A DNA stretch of 64,000 nt from Candidatus Gottesmanbacteria bacterium (GCA_963711735.1 CAVQFA010000005.1:269778-333777); one strand, 5' to 3'. Positions 51,198-59,729 are shown, counted from the first letter of the stretch. The notes: a model not told the origin generated them from the sequence alone. Made by a program: numbers and translations.

Positions 51198-51896
51198 TTA
51201 TACTTCAGAAGCCATAAGCGCATCGCTTACTTTGTGCAGTTTTCCGTTTACGATATCATCAAGGTTATGCCATGATTTGTTTATCCGGTGGTCGGTAACC
51301 CTGTTTTGCGGAAAGTTATAGGTTCGGATTTTTTCTGCTCTCATACCCCGACCGATAATGCTTCGTGCCGCTCCGACCGTTTGGGCATTTTTTACCTCTT
51401 CCTGTTCCCAGAGTTTTGCACGGAGCATGGACAATGCAACCGCCCGGTTCTGGAACTGATCTCTTTCAGTCTGGCAGGCCACAACAATACCTGATGGTTT
51501 ATGCCGGAGACGTACAGCTGATGATACTTTATTGACGTTTTGTCCTCCGTGTCCGCCTGAACGGAAAAAGTCCCATTCCAAATCTTCGTTTCGTACCATA
51601 ACGTCATTTTCCGGTATCTCAGGAAGAACAGCTACCGTTGCCGTTGATGTGTGAATTCTTCCTGATCTTTCAGTTGTCGGTATCCGTTGTACTCTGTGGG
51701 TTCCTGCTTCATACTGGAGTCTTGTAAATGCATCAGTTCCTTTGATCCTCACTGCATTTTCCGATACTTCTTCAACTTTCCAACCGAGGATATTCGCATA
51801 TCTGGTATACATACGCATAAGATCCATTGCCCAGATTTTCGCTTCATCACCACCCGGTCCTGCACGAAATTCAAGAATTGCGACATTGGAATTCAT
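51198..51896 (-). CDS. prfA: Peptide chain release factor 1 homologue lacking N-terminal domain 1 (about 232 aa rather than about 360)
   Basis: It begins at the domain-2 region (NVAILEFRAGPGGDEA). It has the PxT-type tripeptide context (RIPTTERSGRIHTS) and GGQ (SGGHGGQNVNK). A TTG six codons upstream gives the ORF-track coordinate 51902. Confidence 0.7.
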   Translation of the reverse strand: MNSNVAILEFRAGPGGDEAKIWAMDLMRMYTRYANILGWKVEEVSENAVRIKGTDAFTRLQYEAGTHRVQRIPTTERSGRIHTSTATVAVLPEIPENDVMVRNEDLEWDFFRSGGHGGQNVNKVSSAVRLRHKPSGIVVACQTERDQFQNRAVALSMLRAKLWEQEEVKNAQTVGAARSIIGRGMRAEKIRTYNFPQNRVTDHRINKSWHNLDDIVNGKLHKVSDALMASEV

Positions 51897-51912
51897 ATTC
51901 AATTATTAGTCT

Positions 51913-52221
51913 TTATCTTAAAGATGAAAGCATGTCTTTGAGGCTCTTCTGCTGGCGAATGGCTTCTTCTTTGTCTTTTTTCTTCTTTTTCTTGTCAACC
52001 AGTGCTTTTTTCTGGGAATCGCCGAATTGTTTCATCTTCTGGAATTTTTCAACCCGTCCGAGCGCATCGACAAACTTCATCTCTCCGGTAAAAAACGGAT
52101 GGCATTTGGCACAAACATCCACTTTTATCGTTTGCTTCGTGGCACCCACCGTAAACGTATTACCGCAGGCACACGTAACAATTGCATCACTGAACCACTG
52201 AGGATGGATGGATTTCTTCAT
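51913..52221 (-). CDS. rpmE: 50S ribosomal protein L31 with a Lys-rich C-terminal extension of about 30 aa
   Basis: [47 protein letters not shown] followed by ...[32 protein letters not shown]. The ORF-track extension upstream to 52461 has no homology. Confidence 0.75.
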
Positions 52222-52262
52222 AAGGTCACTATTATACCATGCATACTTATGTGAGAAAAGAC

Positions 52263-53177
52263 CTACAATAATCTTCTGAATGGATGGTAATGCAGCCTGC
52301 CTTCCGCAATAAATATTCCCGAGAAGATAAGGACTGCTCCGAGAAGAAACATAGGTGAAATGCGTTCGTTCAGCAGGATAAATCCGAGTATTGTTCCGAT
52401 AATCGGATCGATGTAGGTAAACATCGTAGCATCCGTTGCCTGAATTTTTGATAATCCCCATGCAAATAATCCGTACCCGAGAACAGAAGAGAATAACGCC
52501 CCGTATGCAATTCCTATATACCCGTATGTATTGATTTGCTGGTAAAGAAGCGGTGTCTGTATAACCTCGAAAATAGCAAGCGGCAGAAATGTGAGTGAAC
52601 CGATGAGAAATGCCCAGAAAGTAAATAATGTCGGATTATATTTCTGAAGTACTTTTCTGCCGATGAGAGTCTGTCCGACAGCTCCGAGCGTTGCGACAGC
52701 GAGAAATATATTGCCTAAAACAGAACCATCTATCCCTTTTTCGAGGATCGGTTCAATGATAATTATGATAATGCCTATGCTTCCGGCGATCATACCGATA
52801 AATTTTTTCCTGACAAACGGTTCATTCAGAAATATAATTGCAAGCAGCATTGTGACTATCGGAGCACCTGATGCGATAATAGGAGCATTGATGGAAAGAG
52901 TGTGTTTGAGTCCCTCGAAAAAAAAGATAATATTTACGGTTATTCCTGACAGGGCATAGAGGAGAAGTGACTTTCCGTCTTTTTTAAGAAGTTCGCCCGG
53001 TTTGGCAACATGCGGTCCGAAAACTGTCAGAAGAATGAGAGCTCCGAGGAAAAATCTCCAGAACGCAAGTGTAAACGGCGGGATATTGGTAAGAGAGAGC
53101 TTGAAAATAGGTGCCGCAGCTCCCCAAATCATATTTGCGATGATAAGAGCCAAAACTGCTTTTCGGACAGACTTCAT
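52263..53177 (-). CDS. DMT-superfamily (EamA-like) transporter
   Basis: 304 aa, about 10 predicted TM helices with duplicated EamA halves. Confidence 0.7.
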
Positions 53178-53270: not shown

Positions 53271-54483
53271 TTATGTTTTCGACAATCTCCGGACTATATC
53301 GTCAACTGACATCTCTTCCTGTGTTTTGTTTTTCATATCCTTGAGCTTTACAACACCTTTTGCAACTTCCTGTGGTCCCTGAATAACAACAAACGGTATG
53401 CCTTTCCGGTCGGCATATTTCAGTTGCTTGTCGAGCTTGTCATCCGAAGGGTATATATCGGTATTTATGCCGTTTGAACGTAATTTTGCCGTAATTTCGA
53501 GTGATTTTTCCCATAATGATGAGTCAAATACGGTAACAAGTACATTTCCCGATGTCGTAAGCGGTGGGGTAAGTCCAAGTGTATCCAATGCTTCCAGTGT
53601 TCGGTCAAATCCGAGACCAAAGCCAGTCCCTCCGATATCCCTGCCGGCAAGTTTTTGGAGAAGTCCGTCGTATCTCTCACCACCCAATACAGAAAGGTTT
53701 CCCGCGTCCGGTATTTCAATTTCCCAGATAGGACCCATTGAGTAGGAAAACGAGCGTGCAATTGTCGGATCAAACCGGTACCAATCTTCTGGGAAACCGT
53801 ATGATTTAAGGTATGCAAGGATTATTTCAACTTCCTCATTTGGTTTAAGGTTTTTAACGTAAGACAAGTATTCTTTTGCCTTATCAGTACTGATCCCTTT
53901 TCCATCCATTTCCTTCAGTACACCTTCATCACCGATCTTTTTGATCTTGTCGATAGAAACAATTGCCTCATACGGGAGGTCTTTCAGCATGGATCTGGAA
54001 CTGATGTTCACGAGGACTTTTGTACATCCAAGTTGACGGTAAATATCAAGTGATAACGCAATGGTTTCCGCATCAGCATCGGGAGTTTTTATTCCGAAAA
54101 TATCAGCATCCACCTGCGTAAATTCACGGTATCTCCCTTTTTGCGGCTTTTCCGCCCGGAACGTGGATTGTATCTGGTACCGTTTAAAAGGGAACACGAT
54201 AGAATTCTGGTTTTGAGCGATAAATCTGCATGTGGGGACGGTCTGGTCATACCGAAGTGCTACATTTCTCCCGCCCTGATCCTCGAATTTGAAAAACAGC
54301 TTTTCATCCTCACCGATAGCACCGGTAAATATTTCCAGAGGTTCAAGAGTCGGCGTTTCCAGAGGCTCATATCCCCACAGCTGGCAGATTTGGGCAATGC
54401 GTTCCCTCAGCCACTTCCGTTTGGCTGCTTCCGGCGGGTGGGAAATCCCGAAAACCCTTGAGTGATTGGTATTTTGTATCCAT
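53271..54483 (-). CDS. hisS: Histidyl-tRNA synthetase; it needs a +1 frameshift near codon 15
   Basis: The ATG at 54483 gives MDTKYQSLKGFRDFPP. The next frame then gives PEAAKRKWLRERIAQICQLWGYEPLETPTLEPLEIF...RPEKPQKGRYREFTQVD...GGERYDGLL. The shift lies in a C-run near 54436-54440. Confidence 0.7.
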
Positions 54484-57104: not shown

Positions 57105-58463
57105 ATGCAGAATCCCAGGATACCTCCGCATGATGAAACAGCCGAGCAATCGGTCCTCGGTGCGATTCTTATCGATAAAGATGCTATTGTTGATGTGTCT
57201 GAGTTTCTTAAGCCCCAACATTTTTATAAGGAATCGTACGGAACTATATACGACTCCATGCTTGCTTTGTATGAAGCTCATGAGCCCATTGATGTTGTAA
57301 CTGTTACGGCAGAATTAAAAAAAGAGGGTAATCTGAAAGAAGTCGGTGGAGCACATGCGGTAAATGAACTTCTCACGATTGTGCCGACAAGTGCACATGC
57401 CAAACAGTACGCACGCATTATAAAAGAGCTGTATACCAAACGGATGCTTATCCATACAGCTGCTACGATTACTGAGCTTGCATTTACTGAAAAAGGCGAA
57501 GCAGAAGATATTCTCGATAAAGCCGAACAGGAAATTTTTGCAATTGCCCAGCACGCAACGAAACGGGATTTTATTCCTATAAAAGATGCTCTCGCTTCAT
57601 CGTTTGACAGGCTGGATGAACTGCATAAACAATCAGGAGGTTTACGCGGGGTTCCTACGGGATTTTCAGAACTTGATTTTAAATTAGCCGGTCTTCAGAA
57701 TTCCAATCTTATAATTCTTGCTGCACGTCCCGGAACCGGAAAAACTGCCATGATTCTGAATATTGCACAATTCGCAGGAGTTCACGAAAAAATTCCGGTC
57801 GGAATTTTTTCACTCGAAATGAGCAAAGAGGAACTTGTTGACAGACTTCTCGTATCACAGGCGGATATTGATGCATGGAGACTGAAAACCGGTAAACTTT
57901 CTGACGATGATTTTACCCGGCTTTCTGATGCTATGGGGGAACTTGCGGAAGCTCCGATATATATCGATGATACTCCGGGTTTGTCAGTCATGGAAATGCG
58001 TACCAAAGCGAGACGTCTTCAGGTAGAACACGATATCCGGCTTGTCATTATAGACTATCTGCAGCTTGCCGATCCGGGCAGGAGATATGATAATAGGGTG
58101 CAGGAAGTTTCCATAATTTCCCAAAGCATGAAAAATCTTGCCCGTGAATTGAATCTTCCGGTTCTTGTGTGTTCACAATTGTCGCGTGCTGTAGAATCCA
58201 GAGGATCAAAAATACCTGAACTGTCGGATTTACGTGAATCAGGTTCTATTGAACAGGATGCAGATGTAGTCATGTTTCTCTACAGAGAGGATTCTGATCA
58301 GACGCAGTGGGGTGAGCAAATACCAACTAAACTTCGGATCGCAAAACACAGAAACGGACCTTTGGCTGAGATTGATATGATATTCCGCGGCGACAGAATA
58401 CGTTTTTATGGCGTCGAACGGGCCCGCACGGATGAGTCTCCCGCACTTCCCAGTAGCAGTTAA
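57105..58463 (+). CDS. dnaB: Replicative DNA helicase DnaB
   Basis: N-terminal PHDETAEQSVLGAIL, Walker A ARPGTGKT, and H2, H3 and H4 motifs. Confidence 0.9.
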   Translation: MQNPRIPPHDETAEQSVLGAILIDKDAIVDVSEFLKPQHFYKESYGTIYDSMLALYEAHEPIDVVTVTAELKKEGNLKEVGGAHAVNELLTIVPTSAHAKQYARIIKELYTKRMLIHTAATITELAFTEKGEAEDILDKAEQEIFAIAQHATKRDFIPIKDALASSFDRLDELHKQSGGLRGVPTGFSELDFKLAGLQNSNLIILAARPGTGKTAMILNIAQFAGVHEKIPVGIFSLEMSKEELVDRLLVSQADIDAWRLKTGKLSDDDFTRLSDAMGELAEAPIYIDDTPGLSVMEMRTKARRLQVEHDIRLVIIDYLQLADPGRRYDNRVQEVSIISQSMKNLARELNLPVLVCSQLSRAVESRGSKIPELSDLRESGSIEQDADVVMFLYREDSDQTQWGEQIPTKLRIAKHRNGPLAEIDMIFRGDRIRFYGVERARTDESPALPSSS

Positions 58464-58500
58464 CATTCCCGTTGCAGTACAATATAACCTAAGCACTCAG

Positions 58501-58536
58501 GGCCAGGTGGCGGAATTGGTTGACCTGCCTCGCATT
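58501..58536 (+). other. 5' fragment of a tRNA-Leu-like gene (acceptor 5' strand plus D-arm only)
   Basis: GGCCAGG TG GCGG AATTGGTTGAC CTGC, then non-tRNA sequence. Its acceptor strand could pair with CTTGGCC at 58697-58703. Confidence 0.4.
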
Positions 58537-58622
58537 GCCATGGTGTTGGAATTGGTAGACAAGCTGGTCTCAAAAACCAGTGGACATAAAAGTCCGTGTG
58601 GGTTCGATTCCCACCCATGGCA
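58537..58622 (+). tRNA. tRNA-Leu (anticodon CAA), class II with a long variable arm; no encoded CCA
   Basis: Manual fold. Acceptor GCCATGG/CCATGGC, D-arm TTG-AATTGGTAG-ACAA, anticodon stem CTGGT/ACCAG with loop CTCAAAA, 17-nt variable arm, T-arm GTGGG-TTCGATT-CCCAC, discriminator A. Confidence 0.8.
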
Positions 58623-58630
58623 CAATTGTC

Positions 58631-58704
58631 GGCAAGGCGGGCGCGCAGGTCTCAAAAACCTGTGAAGCTAACACTTCGTGAGGGTTCGATTCCCTCCTTG
58701 GCCA
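58631..58704 (+). other. Degenerate tRNA-Leu(CAA)-like copy lacking the D-loop (probable tRNA pseudogene)
   Basis: GGCAAGG CG GGCGCGC, then an intact anticodon arm (CAGGT-CTCAAAA-ACCTG), a variable arm, T-arm GAGGG-TTCGATT-CCCTC and acceptor 3' strand CTTGGCC-A. The 5' acceptor is one C short and about 12 nt of D-loop are missing. Confidence 0.45.
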
Positions 58705-58763
58705 CAAAAGAGTAATAAATATATAGATTTAAGCGTTTTGAGACGTACAGGAAAGGGGACATT

Positions 58764-59729
58764 ATGATGACAATCGGAGAAATTTATAAAAAAGCCATTT
58801 CAATGGCAATAGATGCAGATCCGAGAGGTAAAGCGGGAATAAAAAAACTTCTTGACCGGAGGATGAGTGAATTTAAAGGTCTGGCGGAATCAAAGAAAAA
58901 AGAGTACGATCCCGAGGACTTAACAAATCCATATTCCGATTCCAGGATTTTGATCGGACCGGCAAATATTAAAGTAGATACAGTCCTGACAGGGATCGAT
59001 ATCGGCGCATCAGAAGTGCTTCTCGCTGACCGTCTCAATCAAAAGGGGAATGGAATTGATTTACTCATTTCCCATCATCCTGTAGGCGGACCGCTTGCAT
59101 CCATTCATGAGGTAATGGATTTGCAGATTGACTTGATGGCAAATTACGGCGTACCGATAAATATTGCAGAGGGGATGATGCAGGAAAGGATACATGAAGT
59201 ACAGAGAAGGTTCAGTCCGAGAAACCATAATCAGGCAGTAGATGCAGCAAGGCTTCTTGGATTTCCGCTTATGTGTCTTCATACTGCAACGGATAACCTT
59301 ATATACCGGTTTCTTGAAAATATGTTCGGTCATTCCGAATACGAAACCGTCGGTGATGTCGTTAAGGCACTTAAGGTAATTCCTGAATACCGTGAAGCCA
59401 CCAAAGGGAAAGCCGGTCCTATGATATTTAACGGATCAGAGCTTAATCGGGCAGGCAAAGTTGCACCGCTTGAAATTACAGGAGGAACTGAAGCAAGTCA
59501 AATGGTATATGAAAAACTGGCAATTGCAGGGGTAGGGACAATTATCGGTATGCATGCATCGGAAGAACACAGGAAAGAATGCGCCAAATACCATATAAAT
59601 CTGGTTATTGCCGGACACATCAGTTCAGACAGTCTTGGTATGAATCTTCTGATGGATGAGCTGGAAAAAAAGGGTATAAAAATTATTCCCTGTTCCGGCT
59701 TTATCCGCGTAAAGCGTTCTGCAGCTTAA
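58764..59729 (+). CDS. NIF3-family (DUF34) dinuclear-metal-centre protein
   Basis: LLISHHPVGG motif and C-terminal His ligands (GHISSD). 321 aa with an insertion domain. Confidence 0.7.
   Translation: MMTIGEIYKKAISMAIDADPRGKAGIKKLLDRRMSEFKGLAESKKKEYDPEDLTNPYSDSRILIGPANIKVDTVLTGIDIGASEVLLADRLNQKGNGIDLLISHHPVGGPLASIHEVMDLQIDLMANYGVPINIAEGMMQERIHEVQRRFSPRNHNQAVDAARLLGFPLMCLHTATDNLIYRFLENMFGHSEYETVGDVVKALKVIPEYREATKGKAGPMIFNGSELNRAGKVAPLEITGGTEASQMVYEKLAIAGVGTIIGMHASEEHRKECAKYHINLVIAGHISSDSLGMNLLMDELEKKGIKIIPCSGFIRVKRSAA

Follow-up and report, generated by a model that had tools for sequence, protein, structure and literature searches.

A tRNA-Leu(CAA) gene nested within another tRNA-Leu(CAA) gene in a Candidatus Gottesmanbacteria genome, and its probable origin by insertion of a palindromic tRNA cassette

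Anatomy of the nested tRNA-Leu(CAA) locus

The locus described here occupies positions 58501-58704 of a 64,000-nt stretch of DNA, hereafter the window, from a Candidatus Gottesmanbacteria bacterium (GCA_963711735.1 CAVQFA010000005.1:269778-333777), a member of the candidate phyla radiation (CPR; Gottesmanbacteria/Microgenomates). An intact tRNA-Leu(CAA) gene lies there inside a second, interrupted tRNA-Leu(CAA) gene, with the arms of a short palindromic element, here called E, at the two junctions. A first-pass annotation of the window had recognized three tRNA-Leu(CAA)-related segments in this interval, and all three were recovered. The middle one (58537-58622, plus strand), described as a canonical 86-nt tRNA-Leu(CAA), was confirmed by ARAGORN and scored 56.9 bits with the Rfam tRNA model, against a gathering score of 29 bits. 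It has a canonical cloverleaf with a class II variable arm and discriminator A, and scores well over threshold. ARAGORN, which places it at 58537-58623, called no other tRNA in the entire 64 kb. We refer to it as the inner gene and presume that it is the functional one.

The sequences on either side were reassigned in part. The upstream segment, previously taken as a tRNA 5' fragment from 58501 to 58536, is indeed tRNA-derived at 58501-58523, and the remainder (58524-58536) is the left arm of E. The downstream segment (58631-58704) had been taken as a copy with a corrupted 5' acceptor and no D loop. It does score with the Rfam tRNA model, marginally over the gathering score at 29.6 bits and with 13 D-arm positions absent. 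Positions 58631-58637, the supposed acceptor, are not tRNA sequence: they belong to the right arm of E (GGCAAGGCGGG), a chance acceptor mimic that the Rfam model misread. Since this 5' acceptor is a palindrome arm, we abandoned the reading in which an intact gene has a fragment on one side and a D-loop-deleted copy on the other.

Two tRNA pieces remain on the plus strand. The 5' piece (58501-58523, GGCCAGGTGGCGGAATTGGTTGA) comprises the acceptor 5' strand, positions 8-9, the D-stem 5' strand and the D loop; it pairs with 58697-58703 in the acceptor stem and with 58642-58644 in the D stem. The 3' piece (58642-58704, CGCGCAGGTCTCAAAAACCTG...CTTGGCCA) runs from the D-stem 3' strand through the anticodon arm (CAA), the variable arm (GAAGCTAACACTTC) and the T arm to the acceptor 3' strand and discriminator A. 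Joined in silico, they give 86 nt that ARAGORN calls as tRNA-Leu(CAA) with every arm intact. The rejoined gene has the acceptor stem GGCCAGG/CTTGGCC, whose pairing with a single G-U had already been noticed in the first pass, and the D stem GCG/CGC; the inner gene has GCCATGG/CCATGGC and TTG/CAA. Because the acceptor and D-stem strands of the flanking pieces match each other and differ from those of the inner gene, these pieces are halves of one gene, the outer gene.

The other arrangement considered in the first pass, a single gene interrupted by an insertion with a complete tRNA-Leu(CAA) of its own, is the one retained here, with the length of the insertion corrected from 117 to 118 nt (58524-58641, with a 1-nt ambiguity from a shared C). 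The inner tRNA makes up 86 of the 118 nt. It is preceded by the 13-nt left arm of E (58524-58536, plus strand, CCTGCCTCGCATT; consensus CCTGCCCGCAWT) and followed on the same strand by an 8-nt linker (58623-58630, CAATTGTC; 7-16 nt in other cassettes, most starting with CA) and by the 11-nt right arm (58631-58641; consensus GGCAGGCGGG). Each window arm is the consensus arm plus one base; the added T (left) and A (right) form a pair within the 7-bp terminal stem by which the left arm is joined to 58635-58641. The junction falls at the boundary between the D loop and the D-stem 3' strand.

A putative -10 region, formed by overlapping TACAAT and TATAAC, can be read at 58478-58488 on the plus strand and would drive the whole unit; a consensus promoter scan called no promoter at these positions. 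Relatives carry TATAAT ~9-17 nt ahead of the 5' end of their outer tRNA, or of the sole tRNA where there is just one. With a left arm of 13 nt, a dedicated promoter for the inner gene does not fit, so its transcription is probably shared with the outer pieces. Downstream of the locus, TTTTGAGAC at 58736-58744, 20 nt upstream of the next open reading frame (ORF; 58764), is a perfect 9-nt complement of GTCTCAAAA, which is part of the anticodon stem-loops of both window tRNA copies. It may be a chance match, an inverted tRNA-fragment remnant or a pairing site.

The outer gene is resident and the inner gene foreign

As the first-pass annotation had proposed, the locus was compared with related genomes (loci are designated L001, L002 and so on). 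Relatives of the window's DnaB at 62-80% identity are found in Candidatus Gottesmanbacteria and other Microgenomates/Patescibacteria, and in the 45 closest loci dnaB is followed by tRNA-Leu(CAA) on the same strand. Judged from this synteny, the dnaB-adjacent site is the conserved position of tRNA-Leu(CAA). An alignment was made of 69 dnaB-linked tRNA-Leu(CAA) genes, both genes of the window and two reconstructions of outer genes. In the nearest relatives (L002, L004, L005, L007 and L008), the single gene has 84-88% identity to the window outer gene, and in L002, L004 and L005 it also has the same variable arm, GAAGCTAACACTTC. The inner gene, with a TTG/CAA D stem and a GTGGG/CCCAC T stem, is of a different lineage; its closest match is the gene of L063, a distant relative (86%). 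Identity between the inner and outer genes is 78-84%, and their compensated stems differ. Since the outer gene matches the nearest relatives and the inner gene a distant one, the former was vertically inherited and the latter imported: by this alignment, the split gene is the resident copy and the gene inside it is foreign. The nested architecture itself recurs in relatives.

The window outer gene has a T in its D loop (GGTTGAC) where the other 71 aligned sequences have A (GGNA(G/T/A)AC). This substitution fits relaxed constraint; with the junction just 3 nt away, it may instead have come with the insertion. In the eight loci where ARAGORN called no tRNA-Leu (L040, L057, L062, L065, L068, L073, L075 and L080), no hidden interrupted tRNA was found near dnaB.

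Cassettes of the same build lie within cognate tRNA genes

Metagenomes were scanned with a pattern consisting of the left arm, 45-75 nt, GGTTCRANTCC, 15-45 nt and the right arm, with nothing required outside the arms. The scan returned 18 loci, and every one is a cassette lying between the 5' and 3' pieces of another tRNA gene. The cassettes, that of the window included, are compact arm-tRNA-arm units of 101-118 nt, and the cargoes of the 18 loci represent nine anticodons: Leu(CAA), Val(TAC), Val(GAC), CAT, Arg(CCT), Arg(TCG), Arg(CCG), Ile(TAT) and Asn(GTT). An identical nest was found in three metagenomes (L107, L114 and L116).

The anticodon of the broken gene is the same as that of the cargo in 16 of the 18 loci, and is not readable in the other two (L106 and L115, tRNA-like). 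With the cassette removed in silico, ARAGORN called a junction-spanning outer tRNA with the cargo anticodon in the window, L103, L107/L114/L116, L108, L110 and L112; in L102 it called the outer 3' part only, also as CAA. For L100, L101/L117, L104, L109/L113, L111 and L105 (which has a 2-nt loop insertion), the match was established by reading the joined anticodon loop. The tally is eight anticodon classes in ~12 independent events, all cognate. As tRNA genes make up well below 1% of such genomes, both the location in tRNA genes and the cognate match are far beyond chance. The cargoes of L108 and L103 are tRNA-Ile(TAT) and a CAT-anticodon tRNA (Met or Ile2), and their cognate broken genes are split inside the anticodon (35/36).

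The relation between the cassette and E without cargo can be followed in L109, which reads CCTGCCCGCAAT-GCTCTGCGC-tRNA-GCATAGCGCAG-CAGGCGGG, compared with CCTGCCCGCAATACTGCGCATAGCGCTGCAGGCGGG for the short form. The inner tRNA stands at the top of the E hairpin, so that one stem-closed module is housed in the loop of another.

The palindromic element E occurs in tRNA genes and in viral contigs

E is a GC-rich imperfect palindrome of ~36 nt (36-40 nt, with shorter variants of 32-33 nt). It begins with CCTG at its 5' end and contains no GTAG anywhere. Its predicted fold is a hairpin after a 4-nt 5' tail, with z-scores of -1.6 to -4.4, and the inner stem varies by compensated changes. At the tRNA-Leu loci of relatives the arms are CCTGCCCGCAAT on the left and GGCAGGCGGG on the right; both surround an intact tRNA in L038, and the right arm stands alone in L012. 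Short E, 36-40 nt with no tRNA inside, occurs in tRNA-Leu fragments, between positions 9 and 10 in the sense orientation (L036) and in the T loop in antisense (once in L034, twice in L060). Copies at CPR loci are few, and each of them is in a tRNA gene or fragment.

A scan of viral contigs for short E returned 19 stretches, with up to ~5 copies per contig, and no tRNAs at all were found at these 19 loci. Near-identical 36-mers stand there in unrelated AT-rich and GC-rich flanks, and the contigs that bear them carry phage genes. At L087:327-395 one E is nested in another, with CCTGCCCGCCAGTGCCAGGCGATGGCAGGCGGG lying between CCTGCCCGCAATGCTTCGCAA and CGCGAGGCAGGCGGG. The inner E of this pair is a 33-nt variant with seven occurrences in viral loci, and a slightly changed copy of it adjoins the cassette in L102. 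E thus resembles a miniature inverted-repeat transposable element (MITE) in its shortness, its hairpin or terminal inverted repeat, and its dispersed and nested copies, and differs in target-site duplication: none was seen at any tRNA junction, where removal of the insert restores the tRNA exactly. Some viral copies have imperfect direct repeats nearby, which lie in repeated phage sequence and are ambiguous as evidence of duplication. A target motif of the IS200/IS605 type was also considered and rejected, as the 4-5 nt flanks of ~25 insertions hold no conserved motif.

The E consensus (e.g., L093:4696-4731) is 36 nt long, a multiple of three, and by reading is stop-free in all six frames. It could in principle sit in-frame in protein genes, as Rickettsia palindromic elements do, and some copies overlap long ORFs in GC-rich phage contigs. 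A perfect palindrome of 20 nt, CCTGCCTGCCGGCAGGCAGG, was seen in dead outer tRNA pieces of L101 (1550-1566, partly truncated), L103 and L117, at L065:4435-4454, and in 35 viral-contig stretches (L118-L152), with up to ~6 copies per contig. With its CCTGCC/GGCAGG ends it looks like another mini-palindrome family related to E.

Junctions lie in tRNA loops

The junctions of the nests fall in loops or at loop edges, never within stems. The cassette sits at the D-loop 3' edge, right before the D-stem 3' strand, in the window, L102, L112, L051, L105 and probably L104 (position numbers in the D loop are approximate). Anticodon-loop junctions were found at 32/33 (L038, L107, L012), 34/35 (L109, L110, L113), 35/36 (L103, L108) and 37/38 (L100, L111, L117), and the T loop is the site of short E in L034 and L060. 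The 5'-only fragment in L056 stops within the anticodon stem, which is probably the result of a deletion. At the junctions, no bases were duplicated or lost, and no motif is common to their 4-5 nt flanks. The cargo would rescue a break at any position of the gene, so the restriction to loops probably reflects the mechanism of insertion, which probably acts on a folded single strand of DNA or RNA.

Two comparisons bear on the independence of the insertions. The cargoes of L107 and L012 are nearly identical (three differences) and share the 32/33 junction, and their outer 3' pieces differ by compensated pairs in the variable arm, T stem and acceptor. The compensated differences imply that the outer genes diverged while functional, before being hit, which points to two independent insertions. 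The window and L038 have the same arm-tRNA-linker-arm layout, with CGCGCAG(G/C)TC 5' of the cassette in L038 and 3' of it in the window; because it lies on opposite sides, the two arrangements are not interconvertible by mutation. Transfer by homologous recombination through the outer pieces was rejected, since the flanks of L107 and L012 already differ 8 nt from the 3' junction and those of L038 3 nt from the 5' junction.

Outer genes and other inserts in relatives

Most outer genes show decay. Deletions are present in L001, L012, L038, L047 and L113, stem mismatches in L051 and L107, and a 2-nt anticodon-loop insertion in L105. Further inserts in outer copies are short E (L102, L115), the 20-nt perfect palindrome (L101, L103, L117) and other hairpins (L051, L104). 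Many relatives (L006, L027, L031 and L039 among them) carry the inner-type lineage alone, with no remnants or just traces of another copy, apparently the end state. At CPR loci, cargo-free short E was confined to fragments beside an intact gene, and none of the CPR loci examined had an interrupted gene as its only copy. Altogether, nested or flanking tRNA-Leu(CAA) fragment remnants were found at ~15 of the ~68 dnaB-linked loci. These comparisons support a sequence of events in which a cassette would invade and replace, and the resident gene would then decay, with the window at an early stage.

Other carriers and inserts were observed at tRNA-Leu(CAA) loci. Non-E carriers comprise a perfect 7-bp TCCCGCC/GGCGGGA (L001:4487-4693), AT-rich hairpins (L047), and a degenerate arm with a 30-nt hairpin at 31/32 (L051); L056 and L070 likewise have nested or flanking fragments with non-E carriers. 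L041 has a downstream copy with at least three inserts, and L076 a ~47-nt T-loop insert. A second insert type of ~60-75 nt, here E2, consists of two hairpins with the ends TCCC(C)G...CGGGGA and lies between two D-loop Gs (GGAATG/GTAGAC, the slash marking the site) of tRNA-Leu(CAA) fragments in L016:4860-5415, L019:4588-4647 and L036:4400-4460. The E2 copies of L019 and L036 differ by a compensated stem change (TGACAGT/ACTGTCA versus CGACAGT/ACTGTCG). E2 matched no Rfam family, and its resemblance to hammerhead or k-turn motifs was judged superficial. In L016, at least five tandem 5' fragments, each with E2, stand upstream of the intact gene. Tandem arrays of tRNA-Leu fragment and spacer adjoin the intact gene in L060 (4579-4942), L016 and L019; they are broken by runs of N, probably scaffold gaps caused by repeats, so their copy numbers are unreliable.

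Genomic neighbourhood in the window

We evaluated ORFs of at least 200 aa between 22 and 64 kb of the window, plus two shorter ORFs adjoining the locus. The neighbours encode DnaB, a NIF3-like protein, a major facilitator superfamily transporter, Lgt, a pseudouridine synthase, a HisRS-like protein and similar products. The first-pass annotation had seen no integrase or mobile-element gene nearby, and this was borne out: the scanned ORFs match housekeeping families or nothing, and none matches an integrase, transposase, reverse transcriptase or other mobile-element gene. Nor did any of them match the EndA splicing endonuclease or a REP-associated tyrosine transposase (RAYT; REP, repetitive extragenic palindrome). 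Three translation-related ORFs on the minus strand (51198-51902, 51913-52461 and 53271-54197) have odd lengths: a release-factor-like ORF has just 234 aa and a PCRF match beginning at profile position 98, the L31 ORF has an N-terminal extension of ~80 aa, and the HisRS-like ORF, of 308 aa, apparently lacks the N-terminal part of the catalytic domain. These lengths could reflect mis-called starts, frameshifts or real truncations.

Discussion

We consider it likely that a resident tRNA-Leu(CAA) gene was disrupted here by a non-autonomous E-tRNA cassette that supplied its replacement. The 118-nt cassette, an E in which a complete foreign tRNA-Leu(CAA) takes the place of the hairpin top, would have inserted at the 3' edge of the D loop of the resident gene, the target being folded and single-stranded. 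The resident promoter would drive a common transcript of the inner tRNA and the outer pieces, from which the ordinary tRNA end-processing enzymes (RNase P and those of 3' processing) would free the inner tRNA. The inner tRNA would then do the decoding, with the outer halves as by-products and the outer gene as a young pseudogene. The nested anatomy, the resident status of the outer gene and the foreign origin of the inner one, the E arms on both flanks, the multi-copy and self-nesting E, the matching anticodons, the loop junctions and the decay of most outer genes are shown by the sequence comparisons. The cognate match could arise in two ways. Either any tRNA gene may be hit, and only a cognate cargo would rescue the loss of a single-copy essential tRNA, or targeting may be directed by the cargo. 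According to the second option, the tRNA of the cassette or its transcript would serve as an address and direct insertion into the loops of the folded single-stranded cognate gene. Such replace-what-you-break homing, guided by nucleic acid or structure, without sequence-specific ends and without target duplication, is conceivable and, in our judgment, rather unlikely.

Several points weigh against disruption and replacement by an E-tRNA cassette. In 861 kb of locus DNA we found no transposase, recombinase or autonomous E, and no pair of arms more than 117 nt apart; the mobility of E consequently rests on its distribution. The E-tRNA cassette was not found in viral contigs scanned with two patterns. 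The function of the inner gene and the death of the outer gene are deduced from sequence, and the window outer gene, structurally perfect apart from one D-loop substitution, could be functional. Because the metagenome pattern admitted only arms identical to the consensus and a canonical T loop, it yielded few loci, with a bias to recent copies, and several of the cognate assignments were made by eye. Finally, the nests in L001, L047 and L051 have non-E flanks, and E may be one of several carriers or may not be the active agent.

It is improbable, in our estimation, that the outer tRNA is still functional, with the 118-nt insert as an intervening sequence and two tRNA-Leu(CAA) species made from the locus. 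RNase P and RNase Z would then free the inner tRNA, and the halves would be trimmed and ligated (e.g., by RtcB) or persist as a nicked, base-paired split tRNA. The rejoined gene is a perfect cloverleaf, a stem-closed insert at a loop edge is predicted to disturb the outer fold least, the outer genes of L108, L110 and L112 are also intact apart from the cassette, and Patescibacteria tolerate tRNA introns (PMC13011429). However, most outer genes elsewhere are damaged by deletions, mismatches or additional inserts, several cassettes interrupt the anticodon (34/35, 35/36), and the window outer gene has a T at an otherwise invariant D-loop A. The antisense short E in L034 and L060 is unlike an RNA-level intron, cargo-free short E never occurs in a sole, complete gene, the junctions show no bulge-helix-bulge (BHB), and Rfam detected no group I or other ribozyme. 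A scar of integrase-mediated entry, by a prophage or integrative plasmid that brought its own tRNA into tRNA-Leu(CAA) and was later deleted down to 118 nt, has about as little in its favour, and we regard it as quite improbable. A uniform, compact arm-tRNA-arm unit of 101-117 nt, unaccompanied by other element DNA, recurs in ~12 independent events, and its junctions lie at many positions, always in loops, with no fixed core. The outer pieces are complementary halves without overlap, there are no attL/attR direct repeats, and no integrase was found among the scanned ORFs within 36 kb upstream or 5 kb downstream. These features outweigh the status of tRNA genes as classic integration sites, the presence of E in phage-like contigs, the arrays of 5' or 3' fragments in some relatives (L016, L060) and the archaeal precedent of a 1.8-kb recombinase element beside a tRNA-Thr fragment (PMC3293823).

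The three origins that the first-pass annotation had put forward, local duplication with deletion, decay of a tandem array and assembly collapse, fared poorly. Either of the first two, with tandem copies of tRNA-Leu(CAA) later cut down by deletions or an array of three genes in decay, would explain three tRNA-related segments within 204 nt and the direct repeats of 63 nt (78%) and 19 nt (84%) returned by a repeat search, the latter lying in 58501-58523. These repeats reflect inner-versus-outer similarity only. The flanks are exactly complementary halves of one gene, with neither overlap nor gap; the inner and outer genes are of different lineages, foreign and resident, at 78-84% identity and with different compensated stems; and the ends of the insert are arms of a conserved element found elsewhere, which makes this origin very unlikely. 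An assembly chimera, or the collapse of two tRNA-Leu alleles or strains, is scarcely credible, even for a metagenome-derived sequence whose relatives have N-gaps in their tRNA-fragment arrays (L016, L019, L060). Identical architecture recurs in many independent assemblies and projects, including the identical nest of L107, L114 and L116, and a chimera would not put conserved palindrome arms at each of the two junctions. The 301-nt spacing from dnaB to the next gene is identical in a Logan contig from ERR12037368, although that contig may come from the same reads.

The cassette was also compared with known systems. Group I introns have a catalytic core (P3-P9) and measure ~200 nt or more. An Rfam scan of 58400-58800 (E-value up to 10) gave only tRNA and weak unrelated matches, and the 118-nt insert, 86 nt of which are tRNA, lies at the D-loop/D-stem boundary and not in the anticodon loop. 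Rfam scans with gathering and E-value thresholds in the window region and 18 related loci returned no known ribozyme or intron family. The BHB motif consists of two 3-nt bulges separated by a 4-bp helix at exon-intron junctions. Inspection by hand of the junctions of the window, L036 and L051 and of the predicted fold of the window revealed no exon-intron helix, with no dedicated BHB search made. Archaeal tRNA introns and split or permuted tRNAs are similar in having inserts in the D and anticodon loops, sometimes several per gene, and the models of transposition and disruption proposed for them are close to ours. The cassette differs by its bacterial host, the lack of a BHB, the antisense copies, the decaying outer genes and the intact, intron-less copy inside or beside. 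Homing introns and inteins are likewise selfish inserts that spare the host while sitting in conserved essential genes, whereas the cassette brings a whole spare gene copy instead of splicing and has no fixed insertion site; we know of no homing endonuclease for it. Group I introns do occur in tRNA genes of Patescibacteria (PMC13011429), the same phylum, where interrupted tRNA genes are likewise missed by annotation tools; those introns exceed 200 nt, are catalytic and lie only in the anticodon loop.

Among mobile elements, those that target tRNA genes (temperate phages, integrative and conjugative elements, pNOB8/SSV-type elements and the element disrupting a tRNA-Thr of the archaeon Caldiarchaeum, PMC3293823) also enter a tRNA gene, bring replacement tRNA sequence and leave fragments. 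They are kilobases long, encode an integrase, use a fixed core near the 3' end, duplicate it as attL/attR and bring a partial tRNA, unlike a cassette of 101-118 nt whose only gene is a complete tRNA, with no repeat and with many junctions, all in loops. Small palindromic elements such as Rickettsia palindromic elements, the GC clusters of yeast mitochondria (PMC4478555) and REP sequences invade genes; E resembles them as a short, GC-rich, imperfect palindrome present in many copies, in unrelated flanks and nested in itself. REP sequences also share the layout of a 4-nt unpaired 5' tail followed by a hairpin; E differs in lacking GTAG and, among the window ORFs scanned, has no RAYT-like or other enzyme linked to it, and a REP/RAYT origin is disfavoured on the same grounds. 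None of these small palindromic elements is known to carry a tRNA gene in its hairpin apex or to be specific to a cognate tRNA gene, and E was seen with no target-site duplication. The cassette is thus outside the definitions of group I introns, BHB introns, integrase islands and classical MITEs, the last for want of target-site duplication. In the literature, our incomplete coverage of which leaves room for an earlier description, we found no account of cognate nested tRNA cassettes; what it offered were the group I introns of Patescibacteria tRNA genes (PMC13011429) and archaeal models of disruption, such as that of tRNA-Thr (PMC3293823).

Nests of this kind create spurious calls of tRNA pseudogenes or of "D-armless tRNA" and could hide tRNA genes from annotation. 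Should the outer gene be alive as a processed or nicked split tRNA, it would be the first such case in bacteria. If disruption and replacement by a cassette is correct, the junctions confined to loops would imply an insertion machinery that reads nucleic-acid structure, not sequence, and the finding would be relevant to long-standing arguments for mobile elements as the drivers of tRNA gene disruption, introns and split tRNAs. It would also explain the repeated swaps of tRNA-Leu(CAA) lineages at one syntenic site in Microgenomates, where about one-fifth of dnaB-linked loci have remnants, and would offer a concrete mechanism by which tRNA genes are replaced horizontally in genomes with one copy of each. 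Selfish DNA would then have a third way of residing in an essential gene: introns splice RNA and inteins splice protein, and the cassette would carry a spare copy of the gene.

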